Source of the DNA: Isurus oxyrinchus
Lineage: Eukaryota
Length of the DNA: 64,000 bases
Assembly (NCBI GenBank): GCA_026770705.1
Contig: JANJGN010000034.1
Coordinates: 7,378,001 to 7,442,000, forward strand
Direction of reading: 5' to 3'
Positions 1,527 to 63,344 of this stretch are shown in pieces. A model generated the notes under the pieces. It worked only from the letters and a program-made list of their open reading frames with translations, made no database searches and had not been told where the DNA came from. Positions within the stretch are counted from its first letter, which is position 1, and each line of letters begins with the position of its first letter. The position numbers and the translations under genes are program-made.

Positions 1527-1553
1527 AGGGGAAGCTGGCCAATATAACGAAAG
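1527..1553 (+). CDS. Microexon 1, 27 nt, (E)GKLANITK, GC donor
   Basis: tttttctctcttattaaaattaacag|AGGGGAAGCTGGCCAATATAACGAAAG|gcaagt. Confidence 0.8.
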
Positions 1554-3384
1554 GCAAGTACCCATACAACCACGGGGAGGGGCTTGTTGCATATGCTAAC
1601 TTGCCTATTGTGCATAATCGATCATTCCGCGTTACAAAAACCAATTAATTTCATTTCCAGTAGTGCGGCCTCCTGTAATTTGATTCTGGAAGATTCTTTA
1701 GATTTTGAGTGGAGGCAGAAAAAAGGGTTTTGTGTCGGGATCTTATTTTCATTGATAGCAACAATGGAAATTAAACGCAAGTAATGGACATCACGTGTGA
1801 TATTTTATGGCCTGGTCATGCCGGCGGGGCCATAACATGTGGCGAGCTGTTCAAAAGCCCATTGGCGTTGGCATCGCCGGAATCAGAAATTCTCGCTGGC
1901 GTGTGGCTCCAAACAGGTGGGCTATCGGCAATTGCCTCTTGAAGGAAAGTTCTATTAGTTGCGGGGTTGGGGGCGGAGGAAGGTGGCGGCGTGTTGCAGC
2001 GGGGCGGAGGGTGGGTGTGATTGGCTGTGATAGTATTCAGCAGTTAGATCAAAATTGCTGCTAACTGAACTGACGCCTGGTTGGTGCTGGCCATGGTTTC
2101 TAATGGCCAGTGGAAGCAGGGTGTGACATTGAGATGGTCAGCTGTGTAAATCGGGGTTTAGAGGCAGCGCAGACTCGTTTTTCCCATTTGCCCCACTGTT
2201 GGGCCTCTGTGGATGAGAAGATGATCAATAATGGACTAAGTGGATATCGCAACAATGTGAGGGATTGGAGAGAGTGCTTTTCTATTAGGCCATGTGGTAA
2301 CAGACCTTACAGGCAGAAATAAGAGTGCTGGTCAGCAGAATGAATAAGCTGTATTCTCAATTAATATTAACAACCTCAAGGGTAAAAATATATGCATTTC
2401 CACCTGCATCACGACAAGGGATGGAACAATTAAAGCTCAAATCAATGAGACGCATGAGAAGAGGGGATTTTGGTTCATGGGACACTGGCACCAACACCGA
2501 GGAAAGAGGGAGCATCTTTTTTTATGAGGTGTTGGTGAGCCATGGGCAAAGCCAGCATTTTTTGTGAAATCAGGGGGTCAACGATATTGCTGGTCGCCTG
2601 TAGTCACATGTAAGCCAGTGCCGGAAAACACACCAGATTTACATCCCTGAAAAGAATTAATAAAATCGATCAGTTCCTTTCGATTCCAGGTTTCATTCAT
2701 TGAATGTAAATTCCGACTCCCAGTGCATTTGCTACATTTCCTTTAATCGTTAATACAGCGGTGTTGACATGTCGCCAATATCTGCCCTAAAAGTGCATCT
2801 TCACCATTGTAAACGGCAGCACTTCCATAGGGCGGCGATACGCGACATTGTGAATGCTATGACCAGGGCTGTTGACAGGGAATGAAACTAAAATGAAATG
2901 TGGGGGTGGTCTATGGAAAGGAACATTTAGAAAACTCAAAAGGGAAATCGAAGCAAAAGAACGGTACAGCGATTTGTATAAAGTGAATGACAGTGACACA
3001 GGAAAGAATGGCGTTGGCAACGAGATTCTTGCATTAGCCAAAATGGTCCGTGGAACTAATTGTGGTAGGTAAGAGATGAATATATTTGTCTATTGACCAG
3101 TGCAGAGCCCTGCTTACAAGGTAACCGAAGCTAGACAATGAACATTCATTTGTAATAGACAGTATTTGTAATACACAGGCAGCACCAGGAAAGAGGTAAA
3201 AAGGGAATTAGCCTAGTCGGAGCATGGCACCTGTTTGGATACCTCTTTGAAAGTGCCAGCACAACCATGTCTGGCTGACTGGCATCCTTCTCAGGTGTAT
3301 GATTGATTCATTATATCAGGAAATGAAGCAAATTTGAAAAAGTTGAAGGAATTGGGTGAGGGATCACCAATGAATAGAATTCTG

Positions 3385-3770
3385 AATTCTGAGAGGGAAC
3401 GAATAGAGGTGTTTATAATTATGGTCAATTTTGTTAGAGTGAACACAGAGACAATTCTTCCTCTTGCGATAGGTGCATCTTTAGAGTCCATTGATATGAG
3501 ATAGTAACCAAGAAATCCAATTGGGGATGTCGAGGAATCTTCTTTTCTCAAAGAGTGATGTGAATGTAGAACAGGCTACAACAGGCGTGGTCGAAGCGAG
3601 TGGCATTGATGCATGCTGCTAATGAGACATGGGTGGGAGAGTGTAGTGGAGAGTAACGATGCCAGATGTGGAAAGATGCGAGGAGACTTGAGTTATCTCT
3701 AAACAGCTGCATGCTCTCGGTGGGCCTAATGGCCTCTATCAGTGCCAGATATCGTTCATAATTCTATGTG
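3385..3770 (+). mobile_element. Decayed CR1 3' end
   Basis: gagagggaacgaatagaggtgtttataattatg (RGDLIEVFKIM-like) followed by an attctatg-type tail. Confidence 0.6.
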
Positions 3771-4037
3771 TCGCGAGGAATTGTCTATTTCTGATCAATA
3801 ATCCCGTATTTAAAGTTGGGACTGGAATGCTACATCTAATTGTATGCGTGGTGCTAACATTGAATTCGCTTCTTGCACATAAACAACATTAACCATTGGA
3901 TGTGTGTGCGAATGTATCAAGGTACTTACATTCTTTTCAACTCAAAGGACCATTTCGATTTCAAAAAAGTACGGTAGACAAATACCGGGTAAAGCCGTAT
4001 GCAGCAGAATTATCTAAATCCAAACGCAAACATACAT

Positions 4038-4220
4038 TCTCTCTCACTCTCTCTCTCTCTCTCCCTTTCTCCCTCTCCCTCACACGCACACACACAGAAA
4101 CATTGACACACACACACACGCACACACACGAAACATTGACACACACGCGCATAAAAAGTGATAGAGCGAAACGGACGCGCACACACACACACAAAAACAC
4201 AAAATGATAGACATACACAC
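4038..4220. repeat. Compound (CT)n/(CA)n microsatellite
   Basis: ctctctctct... then interrupted cacacaca runs, with aaacattgacacacac occurring twice. Confidence 0.85.
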
Positions 4221-5195
4221 ATATATATTTAGTCACCCTTTTTTACAGTTATGGTGGAATAGAAATTATCAAAACCACAAAACAATCACTATCTTGTAAC
4301 CAAAATCCATTCATTCAAATTCACATCCCGAGAATCTCACGTTGATGAAGTTTCTGTTCCAGGATAATTGCGAACGATTCATTTTTTTTTGTAAATGTGG
4401 CATCCCTAATCTCAATAGTAAACCATGTTGTCATAACAATAACACATAGCATTCATTGCCATTGCAGGTCTATACTATTCTGACCTTCAGAGAAGAAGAG
4501 CCTTTTTTTTTGTGCTTCCAAATTCCTGTCCAAGTCATTGGTGCATACACGACGTATCTGCCTGAGTTTGCATTCTGATTTCTCGTAACGGTTCGGGACC
4601 GTAATTCCTATTACCGCTAACAACTGTACTTTTAGTTGATCCCCGATTTACAGACACCAAAATACTGAAAAACGTCCATGAATGGATGCATTGATTCTGG
4701 ATTGCTCATCATGCATTTTACAGTTTCCTTCCAGTTCTGCCGGTAAAAGGGATGCCACGAAATGTCTCCGGATTAGAGTGACACTGAATGAAATTGTAAT
4801 GGTTTACGCAGTTCCAATAAAATAAACTTGCATTAACTTGCGCTTTTAATGGAGCACCGCGAAATAAAGTGCGTGACAACTGCGTTATCTGCATAAACTG
4901 ATTCAATGTGTATCAATTGTTGCCCAAACTTGGCCAAAGATGTGGGTTTAAAGCAGCAACACAGTATTACATCGACAAATCATCAAATCAGTGTATGTGC
5001 AAAATGGACTTGTCCAGGCAGAAGCAACAAAAGCAAGTCGAAAAATTTAAATTTAAAACCAATTTGCCTATCGACATAACAATTTATGGTGCAATTCCAT
5101 TATTAACATGTACTGTGCAGTTCATCACTTGCACTAGCCATCAACTCATTTGACCCTACAAAACATAATGCCCACTTAACGTTTTAATCTCCCAG

Positions 5196-5231
5196 AATTC
5201 CAAGACTTAAGGGACAGCCTTGAAGCTAAAG
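5196..5231 (+). CDS. Microexon 2, 36 nt, EFQDLRDSLEAK
   Basis: cttaacgttttaatctcccag|AATTCCAAGACTTAAGGGACAGCCTTGAAGCTAAAG|gtacat. Confidence 0.82.
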
Positions 5232-5739
5232 GTACATGAATGCATTGTTTATAATTATTTATTATTGTCGTTAACATCCAGATTCGACAATTCTTACAAC
5301 TCGTAGCTTTGGTTAAAATGCAAGCAGCGCAGTAGAGTTCACTTGAGGATGAGTGAAATTAACAAGCATATAAATTACATTAAACGTATTTAGGGACTAA
5401 GTGAGCAAAACTGAATATAATGCGAATCAGAGGAGAGGGCGATGGCGGGCGATGGTGGGTGGGTTGTGCCAAATCTTTTCACTGGTTGGAGTCGTGCCGA
5501 GTTAGAAACAAGACTTATGTTTTTTTCTGAAGCCGATCATGTTACCCCTAGGAGAGAGTTGCAGGGGTTTTCAGCGGTAATATCCGAGTCACAGATACAT
5601 TCAGCCACCCAGCATAACCTCAGGAGTGAAAATATTCGGTGATGGTGGCAAATTTGCACCTCACACATACTCAAACATTCGCACAGTGAGAAGCGGAAAT
5701 CATTTAGCTCTGCGTTAATGATTCTCAAGGAACATGCAC

Positions 5740-6450
5740 ACCAGAAAAACACCAGAGAATGGCCATCTCCAAGAAAATGTATGTTAAGAATCTCCTCTTG
5801 ATATTTAATGGTATTACTATCGTTGACTCCCCATCATGAGCATGCTAGGAATTACCAGTGATAAGCAATTTAACGAGACAAGCTATATAAATACTCTGGC
5901 TGTATTGTAAAGGTCAGATGCTGGTAAATTCCCCCAGGTAATTCACCTCCTGACTTATCAAAGCCAGTCCAACATTGACAATGTTCATGTAGGGAGTATG
6001 TTGGAATAATGGATTCTCTCCAGCAGCCTGGAAGATTGTAGGTCAAGGGCTATCAAATTCAGCATCATCTTGAATAATAACAGAAAGTGCTGGAAGTGCT
6101 CAGCAGGTCCACCATAGAGGTATTGTGGCAGCAATGTGAACTATCTACAAGATGGAGTGCAACATCTCGACAAGGCTCCTTCAGCAGGGCTTTCCAATTC
6201 CGACACTACTAGGTACAAAAACAAGGGCAGCAGCCATGTGTAACATCACTCTCTTTGTGATTTCATTCATGTCCCACAACAACATGGCTTGTGCTGTTAT
6301 CGCCCTTTTACCACTAAGACAAGATCCTGGAACTCACTCCCTAATAGCACTCTGACTGTACCTCCAACACGTGCACTGCAGCAGTTGAATAAAACAGCTA
6401 GGTACCATGTTATCGAGGTAATTATGGGGAATCTAAATGCCAGCAACGCT
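5740..6450 (+). mobile_element. Decayed family A LINE 3' portion
   Basis: Colinear with the copy at 24250-24945 (aattcacctcctgact...tacaagatg...caaggctccttcagcag...cctggaactcactccctaatagcac). Confidence 0.65.
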
Positions 6451-6894
6451 CAAATCCAAAGAACGATAAAAAAAAGAGACCACACTTGACGGGCTGCACA
6501 GAAATATGCCCTCCGTACAACTCGGCAGGTCCACAATTGGAGCACTGTTCACCTTTCTGGTCAACAAATAATAGAAAGTAATACATAGTTGTCTAAAGTG
6601 CGGAAAATCATTGACCAGGATGATTCTAGAGCTTGGAGAAAACAATTAATGGGCGGAGGTACTATTGTCCAACAGAGGAGACAAAATAGAAATTTTGAAT
6701 ATTATGAAACAGTTTGATCGGCTACTGGTATAGAATATACTTCCATAATTGCGGAAGAAATAAACTAGCAGAGATAACGGAGCTATCATAAGGTAGTCAT
6801 GAATAACCTAAAGAAGGAAATCAGGCTAAACATATTTACGTGGAGAGTGATGCGAAATTGGAATGTTATACTAAATGGAGTGTTTGTGGGAATA

Positions 6895-7110
6895 AAAACA
6901 GGAAGTACTAGGAAAACTCAACCGGCCTGACAGCACCTGTGGAGAAAGAAACACGGTTGAAGTTTCGAGTCAAATCTGACTCTTCGGAACTGCAGAAGTA
7001 GAAATGTGAATGGTCTAATTCTTTTTAAAAAGTGGGTAGAGACAGGTGGAGCAAAACAGAAAGTCAGGGATAGGTTAGAGACCACGGGAGAAAAAAATAA
7101 CAAAAATGCC
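6895..7110. mobile_element. Penelope-type repeat remnant
   Basis: aaacaggaagtactaggaaaactcaaccggcctgacagcacctgtggagaaagaaac...gtttcgagtc; same motif family as 18175-18305 and 33105-33296. Confidence 0.55.
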
Positions 7111-8089
7111 ATGGAATATCATTTAAGGCAATGGCAATGATTTTAAAGGAACAAAGCTTGATCGGATTCGGTGTTTATAGCAGAATAAGAGTTGGGGCAG
7201 AATAACATGAGCATTTGCGACAAAAGGCTGAGAGATAGAGCTGTTTAGAAACATGCAATAGAGAAGAAAAGAATGAGTATGGCCGCTGAGTGAGATGAAT
7301 TGGCTTGGGAGGAGTGCAGTGGGAAATGTAATTATCAAGATATTCTTGCTGTGCCGAATTACAAGAACTGTTAATATTTCCACTACTATCATTCTCCACT
7401 GATAAGCTAATATAATTATGATGGAATGATAGAATGTTCAAAACAGAATGATCCCATATCTGCACAGTCTTCTTAAAATTATGTCCCGATTACCCTGCAT
7501 TATTATCAATTTCAAGTAATTATTTAAATCCCTTTTGAAAATTCCTGTTGAATTTGCTTCCACCGCCCTTTCAGACAGTCTATTTTAGATCATAATAAAT
7601 CACTGTGCTTATGGCATCTCCTAATCTTAGCTCTCGTTCCTCTGATACCTTGAAACTGCATCCATTGGTTGCTGACAATTCTGCAGATGGAATAATTTCT
7701 CCGTATTTAGTATCCCAAAATTTGATGATTTAACAATCCTATTATAGATGCTTTAAACGTGCTCTGCATGGATAATGGCAACTTGCCTTGCATCCCAATG
7801 TAATTAATTTCTCAATTCTGCCATCATTCTAGTACCTACCCTCTGCATAGTAAGCTCGTCCTCGACATCCCTCTGAATGTGTATTGGGTATAATCGGAAA
7901 TAATAACCCAATATAGCTGAGGCCGAAGAAATGAGTTACTAGATGTAAGCATAAAAGACTTATATTTTCCAGTTTCTCGAATAAAAAAAATGACTTGGCG
8001 TGATAATCAAGTAGTGAGGTATTTTATTGTACATGAAGCTGAACACACTTGCTTCAAATATTATTAACATGATGAATATGCTTTATTAG

Positions 8090-8116
8090 ACCAAGCATTA
8101 GCAAAGAAAGACAAAG
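8090..8116 (+). CDS. Microexon 3, 27 nt, DQALAKKDK, GC donor
   Basis: atatgctttattag|ACCAAGCATTAGCAAAGAAAGACAAAG|gcgagt; peptide is paralogous to exon 7 (EQEMAKKDR). Confidence 0.83.
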
Positions 8117-8989
8117 GCGAGTTATTTTATATTATTCTATGCATTGCATAAAATTTTCAGCGTTTAAACTTTTGTATTTTTTTCTTTGTTTTTCTTTCCT
8201 GGGTTTTGGGCATCGCAGGAAAGTCCAGCATTTGGCTTCCATACTTAATAGCACTTGAGGTTAAAAAAAATCACATTGCTGGGGGTCTCATTTTGGTCAG
8301 AGCCAGTAAGGAAGACATATTTCCTCGCCTAAAGGTCATCCATGACACTTACCAATGCCATGGACACCATGATTAAGTCAAGCTTCATATTCCAGGTTTA
8401 TGAATGTAATTTAAATTTGCAAGAACTACCACAGTGGGATTTCAATCTATCTTCCCAGAGTATTGCTAATCCAGCCAGCTACAATATCAACGTTTTTTTG
8501 CAGGTTATCAGATAATGGGTTATAAACAACCATGTTCCGTTAGCCTAATCATTTGATCCATTATTATAAGAAGCAATTTATTTCTCTGATTCAATTTCCT
8601 TGTTCACATACTCCCTTGGGTGGTCATCACAACATTAAGCACCTACTTGATGTGTGTTTACGTTTTGTGTTTCTTGCAATGGTTGACCATAGTTACGTAT
8701 AATAAACACGTTGCAAAATATTTTATAATGCTGATGAAAGGTTAGCCTTTTCACCAAGGGGGGTGGATTGCGAAAAACTGTAAACTCATTTCACAGGTGT
8801 GCAAATTTCTGGTTTCACACATTTTATATCATTTGGTTCACTTCAGGGAAACAAACATCAGGAAGGATATACTGACCTTGAAATAAGTGCAACAGTTATT
8901 CATTAGAGCAAACCTGGACTACAGGTGCTGAACACAAATCTGCTTAACGATAAGCTTTTCTCAAAACAAGGAAAGCTCTTGTTGAGTTG

Positions 8990-9305
8990 CACTGCAGCAT
9001 TTTCCAATCACTCGGCCCCTACATCCTAGCAAGACAAGGGCTGTAGTTGCATGGAAACACCACCACCTGCAGGTTTCCCTCCAAGCCACACAACATCCTC
9101 ACTTGGAAAAGGTTGCAATTTCTTCACCGTCATTAGACCAAAATCCTTCCCTCCCTAACAACACTACGTGTATACCTGCACCAGATGGACTGCCGTGGTT
9201 CAAGAAGACGGCTCACCACTGCCTTTTCAAGGGCAATTATGGAAGGGTAATAAATGCTGGCCTAGCCAGCGACACCAACACCCAATGAAAGAAGAATAAA
9301 AAGAA
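8990..9305 (+). mobile_element. Family A LINE 3' end with A-rich tail
   Basis: Encodes ...SLPNNTTCIPAPDGLPWFKKTAHHCLFKGN, then aataaatgctggcctagccagcgacacc...gaataaaaagaaaa. Confidence 0.8.
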
Positions 9306-9659
9306 AATCCGGGGACCGTAACTGCCTTATTGAACAATTGATTACAGTATCTCTTCCACAATGTCTAACATTAACTCTCACCAATAATTACTCTATAAAC
9401 AGTACCTCTCACTTAATGCATGTCACACCCTCACACATGTTATGTTAACTCTTAAACCATGGTTGTTTCTCATGCTTTCCCACACACTGATGCCCCTGGC
9501 CGATATATGCGGGTTCCTTCTCTCACAAGGTGGTGAGTTAAGAGAAGCCATATCCACCTTTGAACCTTAATTCCTATATCTCATACATGAGTCTTGAGTG
9601 GACTATTCAAAACGTTGCCAAGCCAACCATGAAACAAACCATTCCCATTTTCCTAACAG

Positions 9660-9695
9660 AATTAGAGAAACTACGAAAGAGTAACTTGGACTGTG
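9660..9695 (+). CDS. Microexon 4, 36 nt, ELEKLRKSNLDC
   Basis: attcccattttcctaacag|AATTAGAGAAACTACGAAAGAGTAACTTGGACTGTG|gtgagt. Confidence 0.9.
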
Positions 9696-10414
9696 GTGAG
9701 TGCAAGAATATTGGGATCAGTGTCGTTATTCAAAGCCAGGCAATTAGCACATTCATTTGTCGGCCATTACATGTGCATCTTCCTCTAGGAAATGTGTTTC
9801 TGCTAGGCTACTGGGAGAGTTTGTGTATCAGTTGCAATTGAGTATTATTCCATAACATCGAATTTTTTAAGAAACACAACTACAAAGCTTGCAAATATTC
9901 ATCAAAAATAACTGGATAACTCTGAGCGACACTGATCTCATTGTGGTAGAACTTTGTATTTGGCAGAAGCATAAAAATGCTGCTATTTGATTGACTGCAT
10001 TAATTTCCGTCAATGCTAAAGTCCAATGGCTGCACTGGACCTGACTATTGTGCTGGATGTGATGCGATAACTAGCAATGAAAATAATTTGACTTAATATG
10101 GACTTCCTTCATCTAAGGAAAGTCTCCACAAATGACTCAAAGCAACAAAAGTGTGACCGCACATCTCAGATGGAGCAATTAGGAAACATTGTCTAAATCT
10201 TGGTCAAACAGATGATTCTTATTGAACATCTGAAAGAAGCAGAACAATAGTGGAGAATTTTAGGGAAGGCATTCTAAAGCTTAGACCCTAGGGAACTGAA
10301 GGGTCGAGCAACAATATTGCAGCCGTGATTTCTTTGGATATCCACAGTACAAATTGGAAGACTGAGAAATTGTAAGGACGTTAAATGATTGGATGTTACC
10401 AGTGGTGTGTTTGC

Positions 10415-10416
<2 letters not shown>

Positions 10417-10472
<56 letters not shown>
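10417..10472. repeat. (GT)~28 microsatellite
   Basis: Perfect GT dinucleotide run. Confidence 0.95.
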
Positions 10473-10475
<3 letters not shown>

Positions 10476-12109
10476 TTCCAGGGTGGGTGGTGACATCTGA
10501 TAGAGTTAAATATGACAATCACAGGCAGTGTCGGGCACTACACTACAGTTCAGTAAGCACAAAGGCACATATGTGAAAAGGACTTGTGCTTTTGGATAAG
10601 AAAGCAATTTTGGCTGAGATAGGACTTATGATGTGAAAGGCCGGCCAGCAAATTGGGTCGAATTTCACCAGACTTCAAACCCCATTGTGAACGGTTAATA
10701 CGACGTGGTCAGCCTAATTTAGTTTCTCCAGGATAATGCACACAAGCATGGATTCCAAATCTTACAGACTCATTAGCACTGCGAGCATTGAAGAAGGGCA
10801 TTTAACCGATTATGGTCTCTCCGGCTGGCAAGGAGCCTTACGGCCTAAGTGAATTTTCCAGCTCTAGGAATAAAGACTTATGATTTCCAATACTTCAAGT
10901 GGGCATGCCAGGAATTCTTTAAAATGTTAGAAGTGTTCCTGCCTCTGCCATTCTTTAAAATTGGCTTCCAGTTCCCCAACAATCTTGAAGTGGAAGAATT
11001 TCCCCCAATATTTCTCAACCAAATTTATGCCCCGTGATTGTGGACAGCTAAAATGTGGTAAATAGACCCGCTGTATCCACTTTACTTGGACGTTAAATAA
11101 TTTTAGGCAAATACTTAGGCAGCGCTTAGCCTCCTCTGTTCCAAAATAAACATCGATAGCCTGGATCCTCCCTCCTAATTTTCTAAACATTTCCAGTCCA
11201 ATTATCTGGTATCTGCAAAACTTGTCAGAACGTCTAGGAAACTCCTGTGCATTAATTGCACAGCTCGGTTTATTATTTATCAGAAATAACAACGGTGGTT
11301 TGACAGGCAACCTAAAATCATGCAATCGGTGAACAAAGAGTCATGAAGTTCTCCGATTGGCTGGACAAAGATGGGGAGGTTAATGTAGAGAGGCAAGAGA
11401 ATGGAAACGCCAGGTGAATAAAGGTGGGAGCATGAGACACGCTGTGTTAGGTCCAGTGATGCAATAGAATGAACTGTGCAAGTTTCCAGGCAACATAATA
11501 TAAAAATAACACATACATACTGAGAAAGTTATAAATAAAAACGGAATTAAAATAAAAGCCTTGCATTTATACTTGACTTGTCACAACCACCTGACGCCTT
11601 AAAGTGTTTCTCTTAATGCCAGCAGAGCACACGTTTCAAGAATAGAACCAGAAGTAAAATGTTACAAATATTATGAATGCCAGTACAGACTGAGATATTT
11701 TCTCTGGAAATCCGGTTCCTTCATCAGATGAGCTGATGAAGGTTTTTAGAATGATGAATTACCTGAAAAGAGAGACTTATAGAAATTTGCTCCTGGTCTC
11801 GTGGAGACTAAAACCTGGGGTCATCGAGAGATGATGGATATTACACATGTAATAGGTAATTCGGTAGAATATCATCTAACCAAATACTGGTGAGAATGTA
11901 GAAGTCGATAGTTCACTATTACTACAAATACAATTACAATAAATTATTCAATATTACTATGAGATTAATCAATACTAATCAACACTACGAAACTAATGAA
12001 TTAATTTGAACCGCCATGAATTTGCTAAACTGAAATTCGTGCTTGACTAATTCGATATTTTGATGTAGTATATGATATGTATTTCATATATAGCATTAAA
12101 TTAAACAAC

Positions 12110-12480
12110 AGGTATTGAGACAATGCTGCTTAGCACCTAACTGCGCTGGCTAGGGCACGCAATTAGAATGGACAAACATCGCATTCCAAGACAGCAGCTT
12201 ACAGAGAGCTAGCCTCTGGCAAAATAAACCATGGTCAGCTGTACAAGCGCTAGAAAGACATGCTTAAGGAAAATCTGAATTGTTGTGGCATAAAGCCTAA
12301 TGAGCTGCAAAACCAGCATCAGAAGCAATTCGTTGGAGACCACTAACATGACGAGTTTCTGACAATTTTGAAGAAGATCAACGTTAATGTCTTACTGTTG
12401 CTGGTGAACAATGTCGTAGAGCAGCATCTGTCCACCTCACAACATATGAGTTCCAAATCCGAAAGGTCACTGTGAGGCTA
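12110..12480 (+). mobile_element. RTE-clade LINE C-terminal fragment
   Basis: Translates, with stops and a frameshift, to LRWLGHAIRMDKHRIPRQ..YRELASGK..HGQ.YKR*KDMLKENL, matching the RTE motif LRWxGHxxRM...P..RxKD. Confidence 0.8.
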
Positions 12481-12560
12481 GGCTGGGACCACATTGTCAT
12501 ATCTGTTGTCATGATTGGTGAGTTTGCACATTTATCGTCTTCGAGAACTAGAAGCACAAG

Positions 12561-12598
<38 letters not shown>

Positions 12599-12600
12599 CC
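12561..12600. repeat. (CAT)~12 microsatellite
   Basis: catcatcat... run; the source of the poly-M and poly-I ORFs. Confidence 0.95.
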
Positions 12601-12963
12601 ATTATCTTAATTATCATTAACAGTAAAGTGCTAATATTTGTAACCTTAGTGGGAATTAATATGCCGTCGCAGATGGTAGGTGCATTTAAGAGGAAGTTTG
12701 ATAGATGCATGAGAGAATAACAGATAGAAAATCTGACAAATAGGATAACATGTAATCAGTTGATAGATGGCTCTTCTCTTTCATAAATAACAGCATCAAC
12801 AGTTAGAGCAAAAGGTCTGTTCGTCCGGTGTAAATTCAATGTTTCTATTAAATCTCACGTAATAACTCAAACCATTGTTTGTAATTGTTCCTTCTAAGTG
12901 TCAGTGATTGTGTTCCTTCATTCTTCACAATATATATTTTTTTTAAATCCTTGTTCATTACAG

Positions 12964-12990
12964 AAGAAAACCTGAGCACGAAAAACAAAG
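12964..12990 (+). CDS. Microexon 5, 27 nt, EENLSTKNK
   Basis: ttttttttaaatccttgttcattacag|AAGAAAACCTGAGCACGAAAAACAAAG|gtaagc. Confidence 0.9.
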
Positions 12991-13169
12991 GTAAGCTGGT
13001 AAATATGTTTCAAGGTGATCAACGACTTTTTTTCTACTTATAAACTCTGCTCTTCGATCAACCATTCTTATATGTGACCTCGTGTAGAGTATTAAGTCAG
13101 GAAGTCAGAGAAATAGGCTACCTGGAGGGTTGAGCCAGTGGTGGATCTCAAGATAATAGCAACACAACC

Positions 13170-14200: not shown

Positions 14201-14699
14201 GTGGCTTGGATATGATCTGTTGTTTGTGGAACCATTTATCTTTGTCTATTGCATCATGCTTCCGCTGTTTGTCATAAAAATTGTCCGGTGTTGTAGCTTC
14301 ACCAGGTTGCTACCTATTTTTATTACGTCTGCTGCTGCTCCTAACAAGGCATCCTACACTCTTGATTGAACCAGAGTTGGTCCCTTGGTTTTATGGTAAT
14401 GGTGGCGTGAGGGATATGACGGGTCATGAAGTTAAAGGTTCTGGTTGAAATTAACGTTGTAGCAGCTGGCCCAGAGTGTCTCAGAGTTGCCCACTGTTGT
14501 GCTGTCCGGCGCAATCTCTGTCTATTACACTTAGCTCTGCGGTTATACTACACAACATGATGGAGTATATGCTCAGTGTTAATATTGGTTATTGTTTTCG
14601 CAAGAACTTTTCAAAAAAGGGTGTAAGGATAAGCACATTAATTATCTTCTTTGCCTAACAGTTGAAACTCAGTAGCAGGAAAACGTTTTGAAACGATAA

Positions 14700-41024: not shown

Positions 41025-41044
41025 ACACACGTACACCTAAGCTG

Positions 41045-49904: not shown

Positions 49905-49931
49905 AAGCGAAACTGAAAAAGACGGAGAAGG
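49905..49931 (+). CDS. Microexon 14, 27 nt, EAKLKKTEK
   Basis: actctgttctcatccacag|AAGCGAAACTGAAAAAGACGGAGAAGG|gtaatc. Confidence 0.88.
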
Positions 49932-53150: not shown

Positions 53151-54475
53151 AAGAACATAAGAAAAAGGATTATGTGCTGTATCATTTTACGCTCCACCAT
53201 TCAATACGATCAGAGCTGATCTTGGGCTTCAACAGCATTTTCCTGCCTGCTCCCCATTTCCAACACACCTCTGTATAAGCTGGGAGGCAAAGTAATGTGG
53301 GCCTATGTTCCATTGCATTCATAAGGATCAGAGGTGCTCCAATTGAAACATACAACATACTTAAGGCGTTTGGTGTGTTAGGCACTGAGGCATTGTTTCT
53401 GCTGGCTGGAGGACCGAGAACACGGGAGAGTGGCCATGTTCACACTCAGAATAATTAGTTGGCCCTTCAGGACTGATATGAGGAGACACTACTTTTACTC
53501 AAATGTTGTGAATCCTTGGAATTCTCTATCACAATTTTTTATACATTCTCCAACGTAGACAATGCCGACGACAGGGATAGACAAACAATTAGTCTCTCAA
53601 GAAATCAAAGGATATGTAGAGTGGACACGAAAACTGGATCTTGATGTCCAACATTCAGCTATAATGGAATTGTTTGGTGGGGCAGACCCTGCGACACATG
53701 ATGTAATATTCATGCTGCAATGCCTTGTGTTAATGTGTTCTTGTAAGGCTAGGGATGTGCTGACATGCATGCATTTCAGATGTATTTTATTAACCTTTGG
53801 ATTCATATCAATGAATCTTCACTTTACCGCCCCATTTTCGCCTTCTTCCTTTACTATTGCACCATGCTCCACCCAGTTGCACATCCCAAGTGACAAAAAT
53901 CAATGCCAGTATTCTCCAAAGTTTCGAAGAATGAGAGGTAATCTAACTGAAACTTACAAAATTCTCACGGGGCTGGGCAGGACAGATGCAGCTGAGATGT
54001 TTCTCCTGGCTGATGACTCAAGACCCAGAGGACACAATCTCAGTAAAAGGGGCAAGGCTTTTAATACTCAAATGAAGACGAACCACTTCATTAAAAGCGC
54101 GGAGGATCTTCCATTTCTCGTCTGCAGAGGGCTGTGCAACTCAAATCATTGAGCATGTCCAAAAGAGATATCGATGGATTGTTGGATATTAAAGGAGCAG
54201 TCTGATGCGGGACTTTGGCGGTAAATGGTGTAGACATAGATGATCATCCATGATCTGTTTGAATGCTGGAACAGACCCGATGGGCCAAATAGCCTACTCC
54301 TGCTCCTATGTCCCTGGGCACATCTGGCACTTTGGTCGAGTAATCTAAGGCGTTTGTTTCAGTCTCCAGTCTCATGGATGTGTAGTTTCATAATCCCTCT
54401 GTTGCCAAATGTTCAGGTTATTTGTACATGTAGAACCTTCAACAAATTGCTTTGTGCAGTCAAGGGGCTGCTGAC

Positions 54476-54635
54476 TGGCATAGCGGTAATGCCCCTGGTT
54501 TAGCAACCCAAAGGCCCAGGTAGAATGTTCTGGGGGTATAAGTATAAAACCAATCGTGGCAGATGCGTGAATCTGAGTTCAGTCAATAAATCTGGAATAT
54601 GAAGTTTGTCTTAGCAAGGTGACCATGGCAGTTAT
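54476..54635 (+). mobile_element. tRNA-derived SINE remnant
   Basis: A-box-like tggcatagcggtaa, degenerate B-box and aataaatctggaatatgaag body; similar reverse copies at ~8340-8480 and ~34800-34970. Confidence 0.5.
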
Positions 54636-55869
54636 CAACACTTGTTCACTTAGATCGGAGTTGTGGATCAATTTCTTCCCTCAGGATGGTGAATCGTTTG
54701 AATTCTCTGCCCCATAGGGTTGTGGAGGCTCAAGCATTAAGGAGGTTCAGGACAGAGGTCGATACTATTTTTTAAAAATACCAATGACATCATGGGATGT
54801 GGGGCAAGATGGCGTTGAGGTAGAAAATCAGCCATGATCTATCTGAATAGCGAGGCAGACTGAGGGACAGAATGGTCTAATCCTGGCCCTACGTCCTGAC
54901 ATGGCATTGCCCCATGCATCCAGATATTGAGAGTTCGGGTACCAGAAGCTTAAGTGGTGCTCAAGCATGGCAGGGATGAATTCACACCTTTATACTTTCA
55001 GCACCTGCGGACCCGAAATGCAACCTTGGGATTACAATAAATCTCTTATGCGCGTGCCTATATGTTGGTCTCGCTGTGTTATCAGCAGAGTGTAAGGTAG
55101 GTGGCTGACAATCCTCTCCAGTGGCTTTGGGTGAATTTGGCGGTGGTCATCTGGCTGCCAGAGGCCCAGAGTGCATCAGAATTCTTTGGGGCGTTTGCAA
55201 TAGTGCAGTGCCTGCTCCTGTGGCAGTGCTGACACCGTCAAGCCCACAGAAAAGATGCAAGATGTAGGAGTCAGGTAATCCTCCACCCTCCCAAGGCATT
55301 CTGGTATCGCACTGCTGAACGGAGAATTAACAGGAGATGTTTAGCAGCCCTTACAAATAGCAGCAGCCATTGTCACGGCTTGTCCTCACGCTTCTCGCTT
55401 CCTCTGCACACCTCGAATCAAGTAGTGGTCGGCAGCAGTGTCTGCCGAATTACCATTGGCCAGTGACCTGAAAAATCCATTGCAGCTGGTTGTGTTGGCC
55501 CAATCTGTTGGTGCTGCAGCTTCTAGTCATGACTGTGGGACTTGGTTCCTAGTAGCAGAATTCAGCCAACCTTTCTTTCCTTCCATTTGCAATCACTACT
55601 CACTAAACACTGTTAACATCGCTGGCCAATGGATGTATTTGAAGCTGAACCAGCTGTTTTGCAGCACTGGTGTTGTGTCTGACGGCAAATGAATTATCAC
55701 GTCCATTCCATAACTCCGTCCCTGTCTCTGCATTTCTGTTTCAAAATTCCTATCTACGTCTGTGTGACATCTGGGCTTGAATATTGTAATGTTCTTTTTT
55801 TTAGCCGAGATCCCACCTGAAACATCTGGTGTTGCATATGAGATCTCATCAAGTCTCTTATTTGATCAT

Positions 55870-56760
55870 TCATTTCTTCCTCGGATGTGTGCATCGATAG
55901 TTAGATCAATATTTCTTCTCCATCCTAACTACCCTTGAAAAGATGGTAGTGAGCCAATTTTTTGAATGGCTGCAGGTTAGATCTTGTAGGCATACCCATA
56001 GTAATATTAGGAAGGGAGTTCGAAGACTTTGGTCCAGTAACGATATCGACAGCACCTTCAAAACCCGCAAACTCTTCCACCTAGAGGGACAAGGACAGCA
56101 GATGCATGGGAAAGCCACTACCTACAAGATGCACTCCAAGTCATATATCACCCTGACTTGGACCTATATGGTCGTTCCTTCACTATCACTGGGTTAAAAT
56201 CTTGGAACACCTTCCCAAACAGCACTCTGGTTGTAGTTACACACACGCACTGCAGTGGTTCAAGGCAGCGGCTCACCACCACATACTCAAGGGAAATAAA
56301 AGCTCTGGGCAAAAAAATTGATTGCCTAGCCAGTGACACCCACGTCCCATGAATGATGAATTAAATATATGTACAGTTCAAAGTCAGGATGATCTGTGGC
56401 TTGGAGAGAGCTTGCATCTGTTGGTGTTCCCAAACATCTGCTGCCTTCGTATTCCTACATAAATGTCATTGATTTGGAAGGTACTGTGGAAGGAGACTTG
56501 GTGAATTGCTGCAACGCATCTTGTAGATGGTACACACCACTGCCACAATGCGTTGGTAGTAGAGCGAGTGAATATTGAATATGTTCAAGTGAGCTGCTTT
56601 GTCATGGATGATGTCCAGCTTCTTGAGTGTTGTGGGAGCTGCACTCATCCTGGCAAATGGAGAGTATTCCAACACACTAATGAATAGTGTCTTGTAGGTG
56701 CTGGACAGGCTTTGCAGAATCAAGAGTTGAGTTATTCGCCACAGAATTTGCCCAGCATCT
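55870..56760. mobile_element. Nested, oppositely oriented family A LINE fragments
   Basis: A + strand copy at 56050-56360 (RSFTITGLKSWNTFPNS) sits inside a - strand copy (SVLEYSPFARMSAAPTTLKKLDIIHDKAAHL). Confidence 0.8.
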
Positions 56761-59700
56761 TATTGATGATGCAAAGCAGGTTCAACTTTCGAGGGAAAAT
56801 ACCCCATTTTTAAATTGTCCGTGTTAGTTGTCAAAAACCCCTAAGGCTTCAACTCTCCATACTTCTGAATTTCCAAGAACTCTACAAACCCCTGAGATCT
56901 CTGCATTCTTCAAATTGAGGCAACTTCCATATCTTCAATGCCATTAGCTACAATTGATTCGCCACAATTGATTTCAATTCCTGACCTGGCCCAAAACGTT
57001 GGATTTTCCTCCCGAAGCATCTCCAACTCTCCCTCCCCCCTTTCTCCTTAAACCATTTTACATTGAGCAATTGTGCATGCATCTGTCCTGATGTTTCCAT
57101 TTAATGTTCGGGGCCATTTTCACCTTTTAACAGTTTGGCATTCCGTATAGCTTGCATGCGCCACACCTGGAGCAATGTGCCCCTTTCTGGCCTCTATATA
57201 TTTTGGCTAGACCAGTATTAGAGTATTGTGCATGGTTCTCGTCTCTATATATCTCTTTCAAAACATGTTTGGGGGATTTTAAACTGTTCATTTTTCCCCT
57301 ACATCCAAGTTAAATCGCATATAATGTATGTGCAAGTACTCTTCTTCATATCTACCAGTTAGATCACACTTGGAGTACTGTGCACAGTTCCCGGTTTCAT
57401 ACACCTGGTTTCAATCACACACACACAGTACTTTGCACAGTCCTGGACTCAATATTTCAGAATAATGAAAGACAAATATGGGAGAAGGTGGTTTACCAGA
57501 ATGGTACCATAACTAAGCATGTATTAAGCTTCAGAGTAATTTAGAAAAGGTTCTTTCTTTATTCACCTAAAAAGAGAACGTGGATGTCTCACCTGAGAGA
57601 GGTCTATAAGTTTACGAAGTGATATGACAGATCTACATCAGAGATGCTGATTTCTGCCCTGAAGGGTTCAAAGCTAGAATCATGGAATCATTCAGCCTTA
57701 TGACACATTTGAACCGTGATGTCTAATTTGATATTTCATTGTGCTTTCCAACTTAACCTTGCATCTGAGGTTAACTCCATGACATCACAAAGTAGTTTCC
57801 CTGCAAACGCATGTCAAATTGTTTTTTTATCTTCCTATTATCCGATTCTACCACCCTTTCACATCCGTTATTCCCTCTGCATCAAAATACAACACCCTTA
57901 TTCCTTTGCCTATATTTACTTCTGTATCTATGGCTTTTGGACCAATAGTGGCAAAGGGCCATATTTATTTGAGAAGCAACTCACATCCTTTAGTGTTTCC
58001 ATTCAGCTTCTATGCTGAAAAGATGAAAATTCCAGGGCCTACAATCTTCTCAAGTAATTTAAGTCTTTCATTCTTGAGGTCATCCAAGCTAAACATCTGT
58101 GTACCATTTGGATTCTCTTGAAATCATTCCTAAAGTATGTCGCCTAACAATCACACGATTTTTCATTGGAGGGCTAGCTATAGGTTTGTGCAAGTTTCGT
58201 ATTCACACAAAAAACAAAAATTGCTCGAAATACGGACTCGAAACGTTAACTCAGTCTTCCAATCCTCAGATGCTGAGTTTTTCCAACAATTCTTGTTTTT
58301 GTTCCAGATTTCCAGCATCTGCAGTATTTTGGGTTTTTTCTATTACTTCACTGCATTGGTATTCAATGATTCTGTTTGAAAGGCCAAGTTTCCCATGCAT
58401 TGTTCTTAAATATTAATGATCATGGTGCTGACATCACCAAGTCGTTGTGACCTTCCCTGTTCTGCACCTCCTGCAATGAGTATTGCTTGCATTTATAGTC
58501 AATCTCTTGTCTGCATATAGTTGTATATTCAAAATGTCTGGCAAATCTGACAGTCGCTCTATGCTGCTGCTCTCCTGCTCACTATTTGCTACCTTGACAA
58601 CTTTTGCATCCACAAACCTTGTAAGTGTAGTCCATGAGCTCAATCCCGCCTCCTTTGAAGATAGTAATAAAATCACCAAGTCTCTACCCAGGTCTGGCGC
58701 ACAAGACAGTTTCCTGTCCCCGAGAAATGAAAAAATAGTTTTATCATCACTAACTGCCTCCAAATTATTATCCAATTGGGACCTTAATTGGCAGTACCCT
58801 TATTGCAATGTTCTCTTTTTCTCTGTTGGTTTGTCCCGTCCTTTTCTTCGCCATGTTACTGCGAATGATAATTAATGTTTTCAGTGGCTCACGTCTCTAC
58901 GTTCTCCCCACCACTGGTATTAGTCTATTTGGCCTGTCACTTGTCAATGTTTATATATTTTTAAAATCGCCAAGACACCTAAAAGAAGATTCAGGAGAAA
59001 TTTATTCACACAGAGACCGTTAGTAAAGCAGAAGTCTCTACCACAGTGCATGTTGGGGGACATTGCATCGCAGTTAAGTGATAGCTATCATGATGGAGAT
59101 GAAAAAGGAGATAGGCTGATATAGATTGTTGAACTAAAAAGGAAGATGGCTCGCAAGAAGCTGGGCACAGGGCGGTCAGAGCACATGCGAGTGTTTCAGG
59201 ATTTATCAGCGAGTACCTTCCATGCAGGCATGCATAAAAAATTGTCTTTAATAAAAACTAGTAAGCTATTCAGAAGAAACTTGTGTATAAAGCAAGTGGC
59301 AAGAATATGCAGCAGCTTGCCACATGCAGAGGTCGGGCCATAAAACGTTGAGTCATTTTATCAAACATAGGAATATAGATAATGAAAGAGGAGTAAACAA
59401 AATAGTCTATTGATCTAGTAGGGTGACACAGGTTTGAGGAATCTTGTGTGAAAAAGAAACAACAGCATTAAATAATTGAGTGGATAGCCTGTTTCTGGGC
59501 TGAAAATTAAATGTATTGTCTTGAATTGAACTAAATGCCGCATTAGCTGTGAAACATTTTGGCAAAGCATTGTGGAGACAAATTAGATGTGGTCCGAGGA
59601 CACAAAAGTGACCGATTTCTTTTTTCTCCCTATTCCCGATTTGGAGCACACTCAATTGAATTTCGCAGACCTGATAATGGCTCATCGGCATATCTGATGA

Positions 59701-62592
59701 TGTGTCACCACACATGCCCAAGTATTCCTGAAGATTTGGGTTCTGAATGGATGGAGATGATCAATTGCAATGTAATCACAACCTGGACCACACACATTAA
59801 TGTGTGTGTTACAATATATAGGGAATGGATTCAGACATTACGTTATTAATCCCTTGATTGTGGATTCATTTAAAATATATAATTTACCAGTATCTGATTC
59901 TGAAGATTAATGGCCAGGATCTATCTTCTGGTAAATATTCCCAGAAATGGAAGATGTTTTAATTACAGTAAAGTGTTTTTGGAATACCTCTTTCGGTACT
60001 TACCTGAACATTGTTTCCTCAATAGAAGAGAAACTCAAAGGGAAAGTTATGTGCTTTATTTTCAAATTCCTGGAACAATCTTGAAATATAGAATGCTGTC
60101 AAGCAAGTTGAAATATAATTATGTGAAGAGGATTTTAATGTGCTTCATGGAACAATAAATGTCAATTGTCAATTTGGAAATTTGCAGGTGTTCATTCATT
60201 CAGAAGTTTACACAGTAAACGATGAAGAGCTTTTGTACTTTGCTGATACATCTGCAAACAGAGGGTATAAATTTGCGGAAGGAGCCAGAGGGCAAAGAGA
60301 AGTACCTGTATCCGCTGTTACGACCTGGAATGCACATCCTAGAATGCTGTTGGAAGGAAATTTAAAAGAAGCTTTCAAAGGACATGGATTGGTGACTTCA
60401 TTCTTGCATGGGTATCGGGAATATCAGGGAAGTGATGGACATTCAGTGGTCCTTTCAAACATCCATCAAAAACATGATTGGCTGAATGGCCTCCTTCGGC
60501 GCTATATTATGTTCTGATTTTAGTCAGATTTCTATGTTATTTGCTGGGAATATTACAGAAAGAAACGTTTTACAGGTTAATGACATGTGAGCCTTGAACT
60601 GAATGTTAGCAGATTTGCACAACAATTGTGACTTGCATCTATTTGGCGCAGTAAACATAACCAAAAAAAAGGCACAATGCATTTCAGAAGAGTATTATCA
60701 AACACAATTTCATACCGAGACTCAAAGTCAGAAATTCGAGATAAGGTCAAATGTTTTCTCAACAAACACCTTTTGTCTGAGAAAGGAGCCATAGCTGTGA
60801 AGGATGTGAGTTCCAGAGTGTAGGATCTTGGCAGTGGAACACAAAGCCACCGATGAGTGAGTGAGAAAGGGAGAGAGAAATGGAATGACTCATAAGAAGC
60901 CATCATTCAATCAACGGATTTATTGCGATGAGCTAGGGTTATGGCTTCACAGAGTAAGTGACGAGGTCATGAGAATTTTGAATTTTAATATTGAGGAGTT
61001 GCCTAACCACCAGCCAATATTGGCCAACTAGCAGTTAACAGGAAATTGACGGGAATCCCCAGAACTCATACGGTATTCCATAACATTACTAGAAAGATGA
61101 ATTCGCCAAATTGCTGAAAGTGGCTATCAATTTGCTAACGTTTATATTCAGGAAAACGATGGCTGCACCTGTATGTAGGCACAAGTTTGTAACGTGTCAT
61201 CTGCTCCCGATATTTAAAAATCGTTGGGATCTAAAAATGGGTGTAAATCCTTCTGCATTTAATCTACGATATAATTTCGTCAATGAGAAGTGCAAAACGA
61301 GAGTTTCTTTTTCTTGCCCGTTGCATCCCTGCGTCTGATATTCAGTTGCTTTAGCCAATATCTAAATTCCTTGACGAGAGGATGATAGGGGAATCTATAG
61401 AGTCCGTTTGCCCTGCCTCCCAGCACGAATCCCATTGTAACGAGGTTAATTCATTGATCATTTATAAATGGGTAATCCATTACTGAAAAAACAAAAATCA
61501 AAAATTAAGGCGTTTTAGAGGAAGTGTGCAAAACATTGTGTTTGAGAATTAAACAGGCCAACTCTTCTGAGAAATTGGAGCATATGAGCTGTACAACATC
61601 GGACGACAAGTCCATGCATTGGACCCTACACAGACACATAAAGTTCTATTGATTCAAAGCAAGTGCTGTCAAATGGATAGACAATTGGCTGATGATTTGT
61701 ATGGGGGAAGTCCATTTAATAGATAATCATGAATTGTGGAAAAGATGACAGTTGTCTATTACACTTGCTATTATACTCTTATAAAATTCTCAGAGCACTT
61801 TAAGCTGCTAAGACCCTAATTCCCTCTTGTCTGCAATACCCTCACCAAAGTCCCGTGTCCCTCTCTCTCTCTATCTATCTATCTCTCTCTCTCTGTCTAT
61901 CTATCTCACACACACACACACACACACACAAACACAAACACAAACACATGGTTATATTGAATATTGTATAAAATATAGGGATGAATTGGCGAATTTGCTA
62001 AGTAGATTCATTTGAAGGAAACAAGAATTGAAAATTATGGGCTGGTAACAATTTTCAGACAATAATGAAGCCAATAGGAAATACAGGAAAAACTTCCAGC
62101 GTGGTAAAAGAAAAACATAAAAATTATCACCACAGGGAATAGAGGAAGAAAACAGGATAAATAAATTAAAGGTGAACAATGCTAATGGTATGAGAAAGAA
62201 TGGACGAGGAGGGATATGCGGAGACAGTTAGATGAAAAGCAATGTTAAGGAGAACAATTCATGACATAAACTGCGCGACTGAAATGTCTCTATACTGATT
62301 ATTAAATGCAATTCGTGATGGTTAACATCAATGATCTTTCAAGATGCTGGGTCTATTGGTAGATACATCCTGGAGCTGTATGTAAATGTAGGAACTGAAC
62401 TGATGGCGGCCGCCTGAGTGTTATAAGTCACAGCATTCAGCGAGTGAACCGGGTGAAAAAAACATATTTTTTTCCCCCATGAAGAATGAAGCATTTATTA
62501 ATTGAATCAATATTTTGTAAAACTTGCATAATATCCAGAAAAGGTGCATGCTGTTAAAGCTTCATGTTGAAGAATTCTTACCTGCATTCCAG

Positions 62593-62628
62593 AATTAAGC
62601 GCGTGTCAAAGCGCATTAAAAGAATTAG
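62593..62628 (+). CDS. Microexon 15, 36 nt, ELSACQSALKEL (duplicate of exon 13)
   Basis: aattcttacctgcattccag|AATTAAGCGCGTGTCAAAGCGCATTAAAAGAATTAG|gtaaga. Confidence 0.87.
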
Positions 62629-63317
62629 GTAAGAGTGCCGTTCACTGTTAGGTTATAGACTGCTCCAGCTCTTTTTCACAACAGCTAAGAGGGTGAAAGT
62701 TTATCTCTAGTTAGACGAGGAAAAGAAAAGTTGGGGGGGGTGGGGGGCGGCCGGGAAGTGGGTGTACTCACGCCGCTTGTACAAACGGCCCATTATTCAT
62801 TCACGTTAACTTTAGAAGACCTGGATTTGAAGCACCGCCTATCACAATGTCACACAGCATAAATTAGTTTCCTATTCTTTGTGCTTCTCCAGTGTACCGC
62901 GTAACATCTTCCTCTTGAAAATGCAATTGTGAATTCTGTGTCATTGAGCGGACGTGAAACGGATGCAAGATGGTTTGACGGGACTGGGCCCAATCCTCTT
63001 AGAAACAAAATATTGACATATTGCTGAATTGGAGGCCTTACAATTACGAATTATTTTAATATTCTAAAAATACGAGAAACAAGAATCAAAATTCTGCACG
63101 ATATTCAATGCACGAAATAAGAATACTCTGCATCACCCAGATTGTGGTGTGAAAGCGAATCTCACTTCCATATTCAGTGTTTAAGTTGAACCGTGTAAAT
63201 GCATTGAAATAAAATCTAGATAAGTACAAGGGGAGAGTGGAACAGAGGGATATGATTGTAGAAAATTTGGGAAATTATTGTGTAGATCTTCATGTCGAAC
63301 TCTGTTCTCATCCACAG

Positions 63318-63344
63318 AAGCGAAACTGAAAAAGATGGAGAAGG
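63318..63344 (+). CDS. Microexon 16, 27 nt, EAKLKKMEK (duplicate of exon 14)
   Basis: actctgttctcatccacag|AAGCGAAACTGAAAAAGATGGAGAAGG|gtaatc. Confidence 0.87.

Follow-up and report, generated by a model that had tools for sequence, protein, structure and literature searches.

A megabase array of symmetric microexons in Isurus oxyrinchus is predicted to encode a coiled-coil rod ending in a B30.2 domain

The B30.2 (PRY-SPRY) domain is familiar chiefly from sensing in the cytosol by TRIM proteins and butyrophilins. The enterophilins of the guinea pig reportedly reside in the cytosol and combine a long leucine zipper with B30.2 at the C terminus, and are said to be mammalian proteins of a few hundred residues. 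Enterophilin-1 is listed in a review table as binding SNX1 and changing the surface levels of EGFR (PMC13749957). In the cytoplasmic part of the butyrophilins (BTN/BTNL), heptad repeats lead into a C-terminal B30.2 domain, and chicken BG proteins have a coiled-coil tail in which each module has its own tiny exon and the junction codons are split, in a tandem gene array with copy-number variation (PMC4046983, PMC5938342). The BG zipper protein is a soluble cytoplasmic tail that regulates brush-border actin-myosin (PMC4046983, PMC5938342). The vespryns ohanin and thaicobrin are venom proteins with B30.2-like domains and provide a precedent for extracellular B30.2 (PMC4566206). The locus described here was analyzed starting from a 64,000-nucleotide (nt) stretch of the Isurus oxyrinchus genome (4.98-Gb assembly GCA_026770705.1), positions 7,378,001–7,442,000 of contig JANJGN010000034.1 (C34), hereafter the window. 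The whole window lies inside a single array of very short, symmetric exons that ends in a B30.2 exon and is referred to below as gene A.

Gene A resembles the butyrophilins in that heptads on short exons and a C-terminal B30.2 domain are both present. The butyrophilins differ in having immunoglobulin (Ig) domains, a transmembrane (TM) region and few heptads, whereas Ig and TM regions were not found for gene A and its rod amounts to approximately 450 heptad-equivalents on approximately 306 exons; its B30.2 domain also belongs to its own long-stemmed clade in a quick tree. Chicken BG has an IgV domain and a TM region, lacks B30.2 and uses 13–36 exons of 21 (or 24) nt, whereas gene A uses 21-nt exons only for the first 12 of its 306, has a main module of 36+27 nt, has tenfold the number of exons and ends in B30.2. 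Vespryns differ in that they carry a short N-terminal extension, have no rod and belong to snake venom. For the class IV TRIM proteins, no RING or B-box pattern was found in the 5' regions of three paralogues of gene A (genes B, C and E), and Pfam analysis of seven members of the B30.2 clade identified SPRY only, plus a weak PRY in one. The initial annotation of the window had listed a C-type lectin and B30.2 among the domains that could be encoded in its flanks; the terminal exon is SPRY, which bears out the second option and excludes an end of the CD23/FCER2 stalk-lectin type. Membership of the butyrophilins, BG, TRIM or CD23-type lectins fails on the defining features examined. The predicted architecture of gene A (zipper plus B30.2) fits the one reported for the enterophilins, and the likeness would make enterophilin the closest working model for a leaderless gene A.

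A control scan without a peptide term, using a generic splice matrix and segment lengths of 12–120 nt on both strands of the window, gave 16 strong candidates on the plus strand, eight of them 27 or 36 nt long, versus 18 on the minus strand with none of either length. A held-out model combining splice and peptide scores, trained on exons that all lie outside C34 7.32–7.48 Mb, placed 16 of 494 plus-strand segments at or above 8.6 with the next best at 3.6, and its top score among 402 minus-strand segments was 0.1. The exon-like signal in the window is real and far over chance, and the minus-strand comparison that the initial annotation had named as able to refute it comes out in its favour. Fifteen exons are firm (nine of 27 nt and six of 36 nt, listed as rod exons in Table 1); they have AG acceptors and GT or GC donors, are phase 1-1 and stop-free as annotated, and obey the proposed a/d core rule with a single Asn. 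The annotation had counted a seventh 36-nt exon, probably the segment at 21325–21360, for a total of 16; that segment has a dead donor. The sixteenth segment of the held-out model, at 3320, breaks the core rule, and a copy of it 90 kb downstream retains AG and GT. The live exons in the window thus number 15 firm and at most two possible (3320 and 46652, the latter with a duplicate at 60026 that has lost its GT). The alternation of 27- and 36-nt exons had been described as strict bar one exception; it stands as a gene-wide trend, at 215 of 283 steps compared to 141.5 ± 8.4 expected, and is not strict in the window, where 20289, 28035 and 35195 are three consecutive 27-nt exons.

On a larger scale, an initial 464-kb scan produced 71 matches on the plus strand and none on the minus strand. 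Over a contiguous 1.26 Mb (C34 6.38–7.64 Mb), 291 of 10,042 plus-strand segments score at least 8, a count that includes the training exons, versus one of 9,272 on the minus strand, and none of 1,224 segments reaches this score in the 142 kb past gene A. Approximately 306 non-overlapping picks (148 of 27 nt, 136 of 36 nt, 12 of 21 nt and 10 others) lie between 6,459,146 and 7,495,809 with a median intron of 2.1 kb. Gene A extends from approximately 919 kb before the window start, where the first rod exon is located (C34:6,459,146), to 119 kb after it, and the window makes up approximately 6% of its 1.04 Mb. All twelve 21-nt exons are found at the 5' end and open the array. Four further intact exon copies missed by the scan were found by paralogy, and two picks of 39 nt are probably 15-nt exons instead. 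Probable 15-nt exons are also seen between 36-nt exons at C34:7,070,906, at 7,123,147 and in copies of these, which suggests additional very short exons below the length limit of the scan. Since 287 of the 306 picks start with A and 285 end with G, the junction codon almost always encodes Glu or Asp. The terminal exon exhibits a Pfam SPRY match (E 4.6e-12), and its best match among solved structures is the B30.2 domain of human BTN3A1 (E 6e-20). Only two SPRY exons were identified in the 1.26 Mb, ending genes B and A, with none inside the array.

Joined by script, the picks and the terminal exon yield a predicted protein of 3,305 amino acids with zero stops. The predicted rod of 3,133 residues (19% K, 16% E, 15% L and 0.1% P) would measure approximately 465 nm as a coiled coil at 0.1485 nm per residue. 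Its hydrophobic period peaks at 3.50, and the windowed heptad power is 1.64 versus 0.65 ± 0.06 in 200 exon-order shuffles (maximum 0.80), in agreement with the heptad coiled coil first proposed from the window. Within the 136 exons of 36 nt, L, I, M, F, V or C occupies residues 2, 5 and 9 in 119, 129 and 124, respectively. The same residues are found at position 4 in 118 of the 148 exons of 27 nt; at position 7, K occurs in 93 of the 148 and C in 19. A second 27-nt type of approximately 16 exons has its cores at 2, 5 and 9 and is followed by the first type in 15 cases, giving an 18-residue (7+11) step; such steps, where two 27-nt exons meet, would be stutter-like. The non-heptad steps in the array are 27+27 and 36+36. 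The rod has 128 Cys residues, of which 110 occupy positions interpreted as d; the 36-nt exons contribute 77 of these at residue 5 and eight at residue 12, the 27-nt exons 19 at residue 7 and the 21-nt exons six at residue 5. No TM helix is apparent in predicted A, whose first coding exon is not fixed, the best 19-residue hydropathy window being 1.14. Contigs of four possible RNA runs leave the B30.2 exon uncovered, and across 18.8–28.2 kb of the window two read sets of unrecorded kind and two possible RNA sets cover mostly repeats, with no exon joint among those listed; both results are evidence neither way. The extent of 1.04 Mb with approximately 306 exons, the B30.2 end, the 5' 21-nt exons and the non-heptad steps all go beyond the initial annotation, whose view of a hidden, poorly annotated, lineage-restricted gene of symmetric microexons is supported.

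Gene B is a tandem paralogue upstream of gene A (approximately 4.83–6.40 Mb), with which A is collinear at approximately 77–84% identity. It was sampled in part, through 21 spaced 10-kb pieces and the interval 4.80–4.92 Mb, and A/B pairing through the flanking introns, which are 16% divergent, located 42 of 53 exons in the sampled parts. All 42 paired B exons are intact in A, where approximately 12 splice-site losses and 6 indels (approximately 18 events in total) were expected, and the proportions of nonsynonymous (pN) and synonymous (pS) differences are 0.105 and 0.169. In the reverse direction, 106 of 112 A exons are intact in B, and four of the six losses belong to one B copy. Paralogous pairs whose flanks are alike at 75% or more number 96; they have no exon indels, four donor losses and one stop, with nonsynonymous to synonymous rate ratios (dN/dS) of 0.19, 0.63 and 0.60 by bin. 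The 63 pairs whose flanks match at 85% or more, which are younger than the A/B split, likewise have no exon indels; four pairs with flanks less than 75% alike have one indel and one donor loss. The B30.2 frame is open, with pN 0.043 versus pS 0.086. The exons are under selection on both splice sites and frame. The B30.2 ends of the two genes, 6,394,000–6,397,503 in B and 7,494,621–7,498,114 in A, are 89% identical compared to approximately 77–84% in the rest of the duplication, which may point to gene conversion at a later date or to stronger constraint.

Rod length varies at the genomic level through exon copy number, by tandem duplications and by in-register pair loss, as had been proposed from the window. 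The last four window exons derive from the 13.4-kb duplication, whose copies are 93–94% identical. In the 56.5-kb segmental duplication, the two exon copies with dead donors (21325 and 23414) sum to 63 nt, or three heptads, and the loss of the pair therefore preserves both the reading frame and the heptad register. Elsewhere in gene A, C34:7,008,000–7,173,000 contains many near-identical 5.5–7-kb units of four exons each (36, 27, 36 and 27 nt), and related units are found in gene B near 6.02–6.15 Mb.

Five close B30.2 exons are located on C34, at 7.496, 6.396 and 4.817 Mb on the plus strand and at 3.474 and 2.709 Mb on the minus strand. Two more distant B30.2 exons of the rod family are found on another contig, C21, at 89.72 and 91.35 Mb. 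In the stretches retrieved, each of the seven has microexon-like segments upstream. Gene B extrapolates to approximately 400 exons from 56 in its 21 sampled pieces. Genes C (plus strand) and E (minus strand) apparently start head to head, at most approximately 30 kb apart, in C34:3,974,000–4,005,500. C21 also holds a dense cluster at approximately 82–118 Mb with most of the 150 B30.2 matches listed. A quick tree built on 159 B30.2 rows, most of those outside the clade being unnamed, unites the seven genomic domains and 12 database proteins in one clade of 19 with a Shimodaira-Hasegawa-like approximate likelihood ratio test (SH-aLRT) support of 100 and a stem of 1.13. Each of the nine named members belongs to a shark, ray, skate or chimaera, and three others are unnamed. 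A basking-shark protein is very close to one of the C21 copies.

The database models of this family, of which we take the RefSeq ones to be RNA-based, have generic names (XP_042192744.1 'nuclear-pore anchor-like', XP_055510696.1 'TRIM69-like', XP_038668997.1 'TRIM39-like', and chiPu_0007878) and are 175–1,722 residues long, most of them 175–460, versus the approximately 3,300 predicted for A. The bamboo-shark model consists of 178 residues, B30.2 only. Between isoform models, the internal differences come as blocks of 9 residues in catshark and chimaera and of 6 and 9 residues in the ray, and the two chimaera models, of 1,697 and 1,722 residues, differ by 13 indels, eight of which are of 9 or 12 residues. 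The longer one contains 22 matches to the 36-nt-exon profile versus 1.0 in shuffles. Because the chimaera model carries these modules, the rod module is likely older than the shark–chimaera split. A search for homologues of 301–2,000 residues returned none at E 1e-20 among 610 candidates, which is weak evidence. A single-sequence AlphaFold model of the skate protein was of low confidence (predicted local distance difference test 45) and was not used. The ESM Atlas contains chordate SPRY clusters of 1,277–1,802 residues with generic names and isoform labels, and similar rods are possible outside the cartilaginous fish. No paper describing the rod family was found in a literature search outside of which subscription papers and supplements lie, and the passages of PMC12841164 listing chondrichthyan species with butyrophilins are silent on it.

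Genes B and C, whose introns are no longer alignable, share a 111-nt exon of phase 1-1 together with the next 36-nt exon. The 111-nt exon encodes an initial hydrophobic run ending in Ala and then basic residues, resembling a signal peptide, and had no match beyond B and C in the genome search. A 13-residue hydrophobic core suits a cleavable signal more than an anchor. A hydrophobic start is featured in four of eight database models from three species, namely skate (295 residues), both chimaera models and epaulette shark, with a 12-residue window of hydropathy 2.66–2.93 and a composition similar to that of the run in B and C; beyond residue 25, no later TM region was found in the eight relatives (maximum hydropathy 1.37). 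Gene A opens with a 22-kb copy of the 5' block of B, then skips approximately 240 kb of B (4,850,373 to approximately 5,094,000) and resumes at the first 21-nt exon. The leader exon sits in the skipped stretch and is missing from A, and no leader-like exon 2 was found in the 5' region of A. Within its 22-kb block, A has a unique stretch conserved at 84% along with a conserved donor, which is what a promoter and first exon of its own would look like. In A, the counterpart of a candidate first coding exon of B has lost the ATG as well as the GT, and a Met in the first 21-nt exon of A could initiate translation. The candidate first coding exons considered (donors at 6,440,476 in A and 4,834,603 in B, 4,840,094 in B and 3,981,489 in C) are unconfirmed, and those of B and C do not align. 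A signal-peptide-like open reading frame at C34:6,437,310 was rejected as part of a dispersed repeat with 40 genomic matches listed. An IgV exon at 6,424,280 was rejected as an ectodomain of A; it is a frameshifted copy of a downstream IgV-TM gene and ends before the TM exon. Motif scans for Ig exons (C34 6.40–6.545, 4.80–4.92 and 3.80–4.11 Mb) and tblastn with one IgV query (6.38–7.64 and 4.80–4.92 Mb) returned only this broken copy ahead of A, B, C and E, though a very divergent Ig exon could escape them. The 5' region of A was screened for Ig motifs, open reading frames and exons, and the RING pattern was run on B, C and E only.

The joint reading that we favour, and to which we give about an even chance, is that gene A has its own promoter and encodes a parallel coiled-coil B30.2 rod that is likely cytosolic, with B and C likely encoding exported proteins. 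A single spliced transcript from the promoter of A would join the approximately 306 conserved 21-, 27- and 36-nt segments into a coiled-coil rod of approximately 3,100 residues ending in B30.2. The a/d cores of the parallel coiled coil would lie at residues 2, 5, 9 and 12 of the 36-nt exons and at residues 4 and 7 of the 27-nt exons. The rod may serve as a long spacer that pairs the B30.2 heads and keeps them at a distance of up to half a micrometre from its other end; the heads would bind a protein or microbial ligand. Cys residues at d could staple the chains, as disulfides in the exported paralogues. By analogy with enterophilin and the BG zipper protein, A would remain in the cytosol and B and C would be exported; A is probably intracellular because it is without the likely signal-peptide exon of the family, and the absence from A of the leader exon common to B and C is directly observed. 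Module duplication and in-register loss, perhaps also splicing, would alter rod length. The broader proposal, of an undescribed family older than the shark–chimaera split whose exported, disulfide-stapled B30.2 rods reach at least half a micrometre on hundreds of 21-, 27- and 36-nt exons (with approximately 400 in B exceeding the 363 of titin) and of A as a cytosolic daughter left by deletion of the signal exon, is tentative and sooner doubted than accepted.

Several observations weigh against this favoured reading. The exon joining, true 5' end and protein size of A are predictions, the first coding exon is fixed for none of A, B and C, and the residue composition of the picks partly reflects the peptide profile that chose them, although exon order was not built in. 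The 128 Cys residues of a rod presumed cytosolic would better fit an exported protein. Four of the eight database models examined are without a hydrophobic start. N-glycosylation sequons show no enrichment in A (11 versus 8.7 ± 2.8) and depletion in the chimaera model (2 versus 9.7), and thus lend secretion no support; in the chimaera model the 9-residue profile is also at chance (6 versus 5.7 in shuffles). Two of the ten upstream exons in the 56.5-kb duplication are dead in the window, close to the neutral expectation of 2.7; in the opposite direction, nine of nine are intact. The tree places all A/B change in B30.2 on the A branch (0.085 versus 0) and relaxation is possible, though site by site the change is mostly ties (9 of 13).

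The Cys content is also the starting point for a rather unlikely alternative, in which the product of A is exported like its paralogues, as a disulfide-stapled filament that bears B30.2 heads in clusters and is present in plasma, mucus or a reproductive secretion. Its leader would come from a missed exon or through splicing from the 5' exons of B past the B30.2 exon of B, and in the read-through form B and A would be one 2.7-Mb unit with two alternative ends. Most rod Cys being at d, the shared strand of A and B, the uniform phase 1-1 of the rod exons and the continued constraint on A after loss of the leader exon are all in keeping with export, and snake vespryns demonstrate that a B30.2-like domain can be secreted (PMC4566206). 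Against it, A has its own 22-kb 5' block with the conserved stretch and donor, no leader-like exon 2 was found there, and a broken copy of the IgV gene lies between B and A. A second alternative, which we consider unlikely, treats the array as an exon library from which extensive skipping or internal starts would produce many short rods of varied length before one B30.2 head. All exons are symmetric with mostly interchangeable junction codons, most named relatives have 175–460 residues with isoforms differing by 6- or 9-residue blocks, and the tails of chicken BG are alternatively spliced (PMC5938342). However, the heptad phase across the exon order is far above that of shuffles, an order that random subsets would not need; a chimaera model of 1,697–1,722 residues exists, and short models are also expected from truncated annotation, as in the B30.2-only bamboo-shark protein. 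It is very improbable that gene A is a decaying, untranslated duplicate that has lost its leader, or that the segments are chance matches. The deletion of the leader exon, the ATG and GT lost from the counterpart of the candidate first coding exon of B and the two dead donors in the window would fit decay, but all 42 paired exons are intact despite approximately 16% intron divergence, the 63 younger pairs have no exon indels and the B30.2 frame is open with pN below pS; the strand controls also count against this reading.

If spliced as predicted, gene A with approximately 306 exons and gene B with an extrapolated 400 would be among the most exon-rich genes known, titin having 363 (PMC3575840). 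Such genes would be near-invisible to annotation, and shark gene sets would miss megabases of coding loci. The array offers a natural test of in-order splicing of hundreds of consecutive microexons, and of module-by-module evolution of coiled-coil length with the register kept. A B30.2 domain with a signal-peptide-like leader and without Ig, TM or RING regions would be a new architecture for this domain, and a shift of compartment could be tested directly on the A/B pair.

Table 1. Exons, exon copies and duplications of gene A in and beyond the window (window-relative positions; scores are those of the held-out model; cores are the residues at positions 2/5/9)
Feature	Position	Strand	Remarks
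27-nt rod exon	1527..1553	+	Phase 1-1, GC donor, Leu at residue 4; score 12.8
Possible 36-nt exon, weak	3320..3355	+	Asn at 2 and 5 breaks core rule; score 10.2
36-nt rod exon	5196..5231	+	Cores F/L/L; score 14.6
27-nt rod exon	8090..8116	+	GC donor (GT in upstream duplicate); score 13.5
36-nt rod exon	9660..9695	+	Cores L/L/N, sole Asn; score 23.8
27-nt rod exon	12964..12990	+	Score 23.4
36-nt rod exon	18984..19019	+	Cores I/L/I; score 29.7
27-nt rod exon	20289..20315	+	Score 10.6
36-nt exon copy, likely skipped	21325..21360	+	Dead donor GA; GT in 56.5-kb upstream duplicate
27-nt exon copy	23414..23440	+	Dead donor TT; GT in 56.5-kb upstream duplicate
27-nt rod exon	28035..28061	+	Intact copy in upstream duplicate; score 8.6
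27-nt rod exon	35195..35221	+	Score 13.5
36-nt rod exon	37136..37171	+	Cores I/L/L; score 31.9
27-nt rod exon	43260..43286	+	Score 21.1
Possible 21-nt exon, weak	46652..46672	+	Copies at +73.8 kb and C34:6,949,728 keep GT
36-nt rod exon	49191..49226	+	Cores L/C/L; score 35.7
27-nt rod exon	49905..49931	+	Score 20.3
36-nt rod exon	62593..62628	+	Duplicate of 49191; score 34.2
27-nt rod exon	63318..63344	+	Duplicate of 49905; score 18.6
Tandem duplication, 13.4–13.6 kb	43533..64000	+	43.5–50.6 versus 57.1–64.0 kb, 93–94% identical; adds a 36+27 pair
One copy of 56.5-kb segmental duplication	3384..57120	+	Partner 53–8 kb before window, approximately 87.5% identical
Last 30-nt rod exon	108,091–108,120	+	Beyond window
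27-nt linker exon	117,783–117,809	+	Beyond window
Terminal B30.2 (PRY-SPRY) exon, 518 nt	118,442–118,959 (C34:7,496,442–7,496,959)	+	Beyond window; in frame, stop-terminated

Downstream of gene A, the plus strand carries a single-IgV gene at C34:7,513,514–7,524,148 (window +135.5 to +146 kb), which has one exon of 18 nt and another for a TM region. Its V domain presumably resembles those of the nectin/PVR/TIGIT type, and it is this gene whose frameshifted copy, without the TM exon, lies between B and A at 6,424,280. Four Ig-like exons, one V-like and three C-like, follow on the minus strand at window +162 to +176 kb (C34 approximately 7.54–7.554 Mb) and are taken by us to resemble Siglec/MAG/CD22. 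Two adjacent frames at C34:6,415,857–6,416,582 presumably represent a broken gene for a seven-TM receptor.

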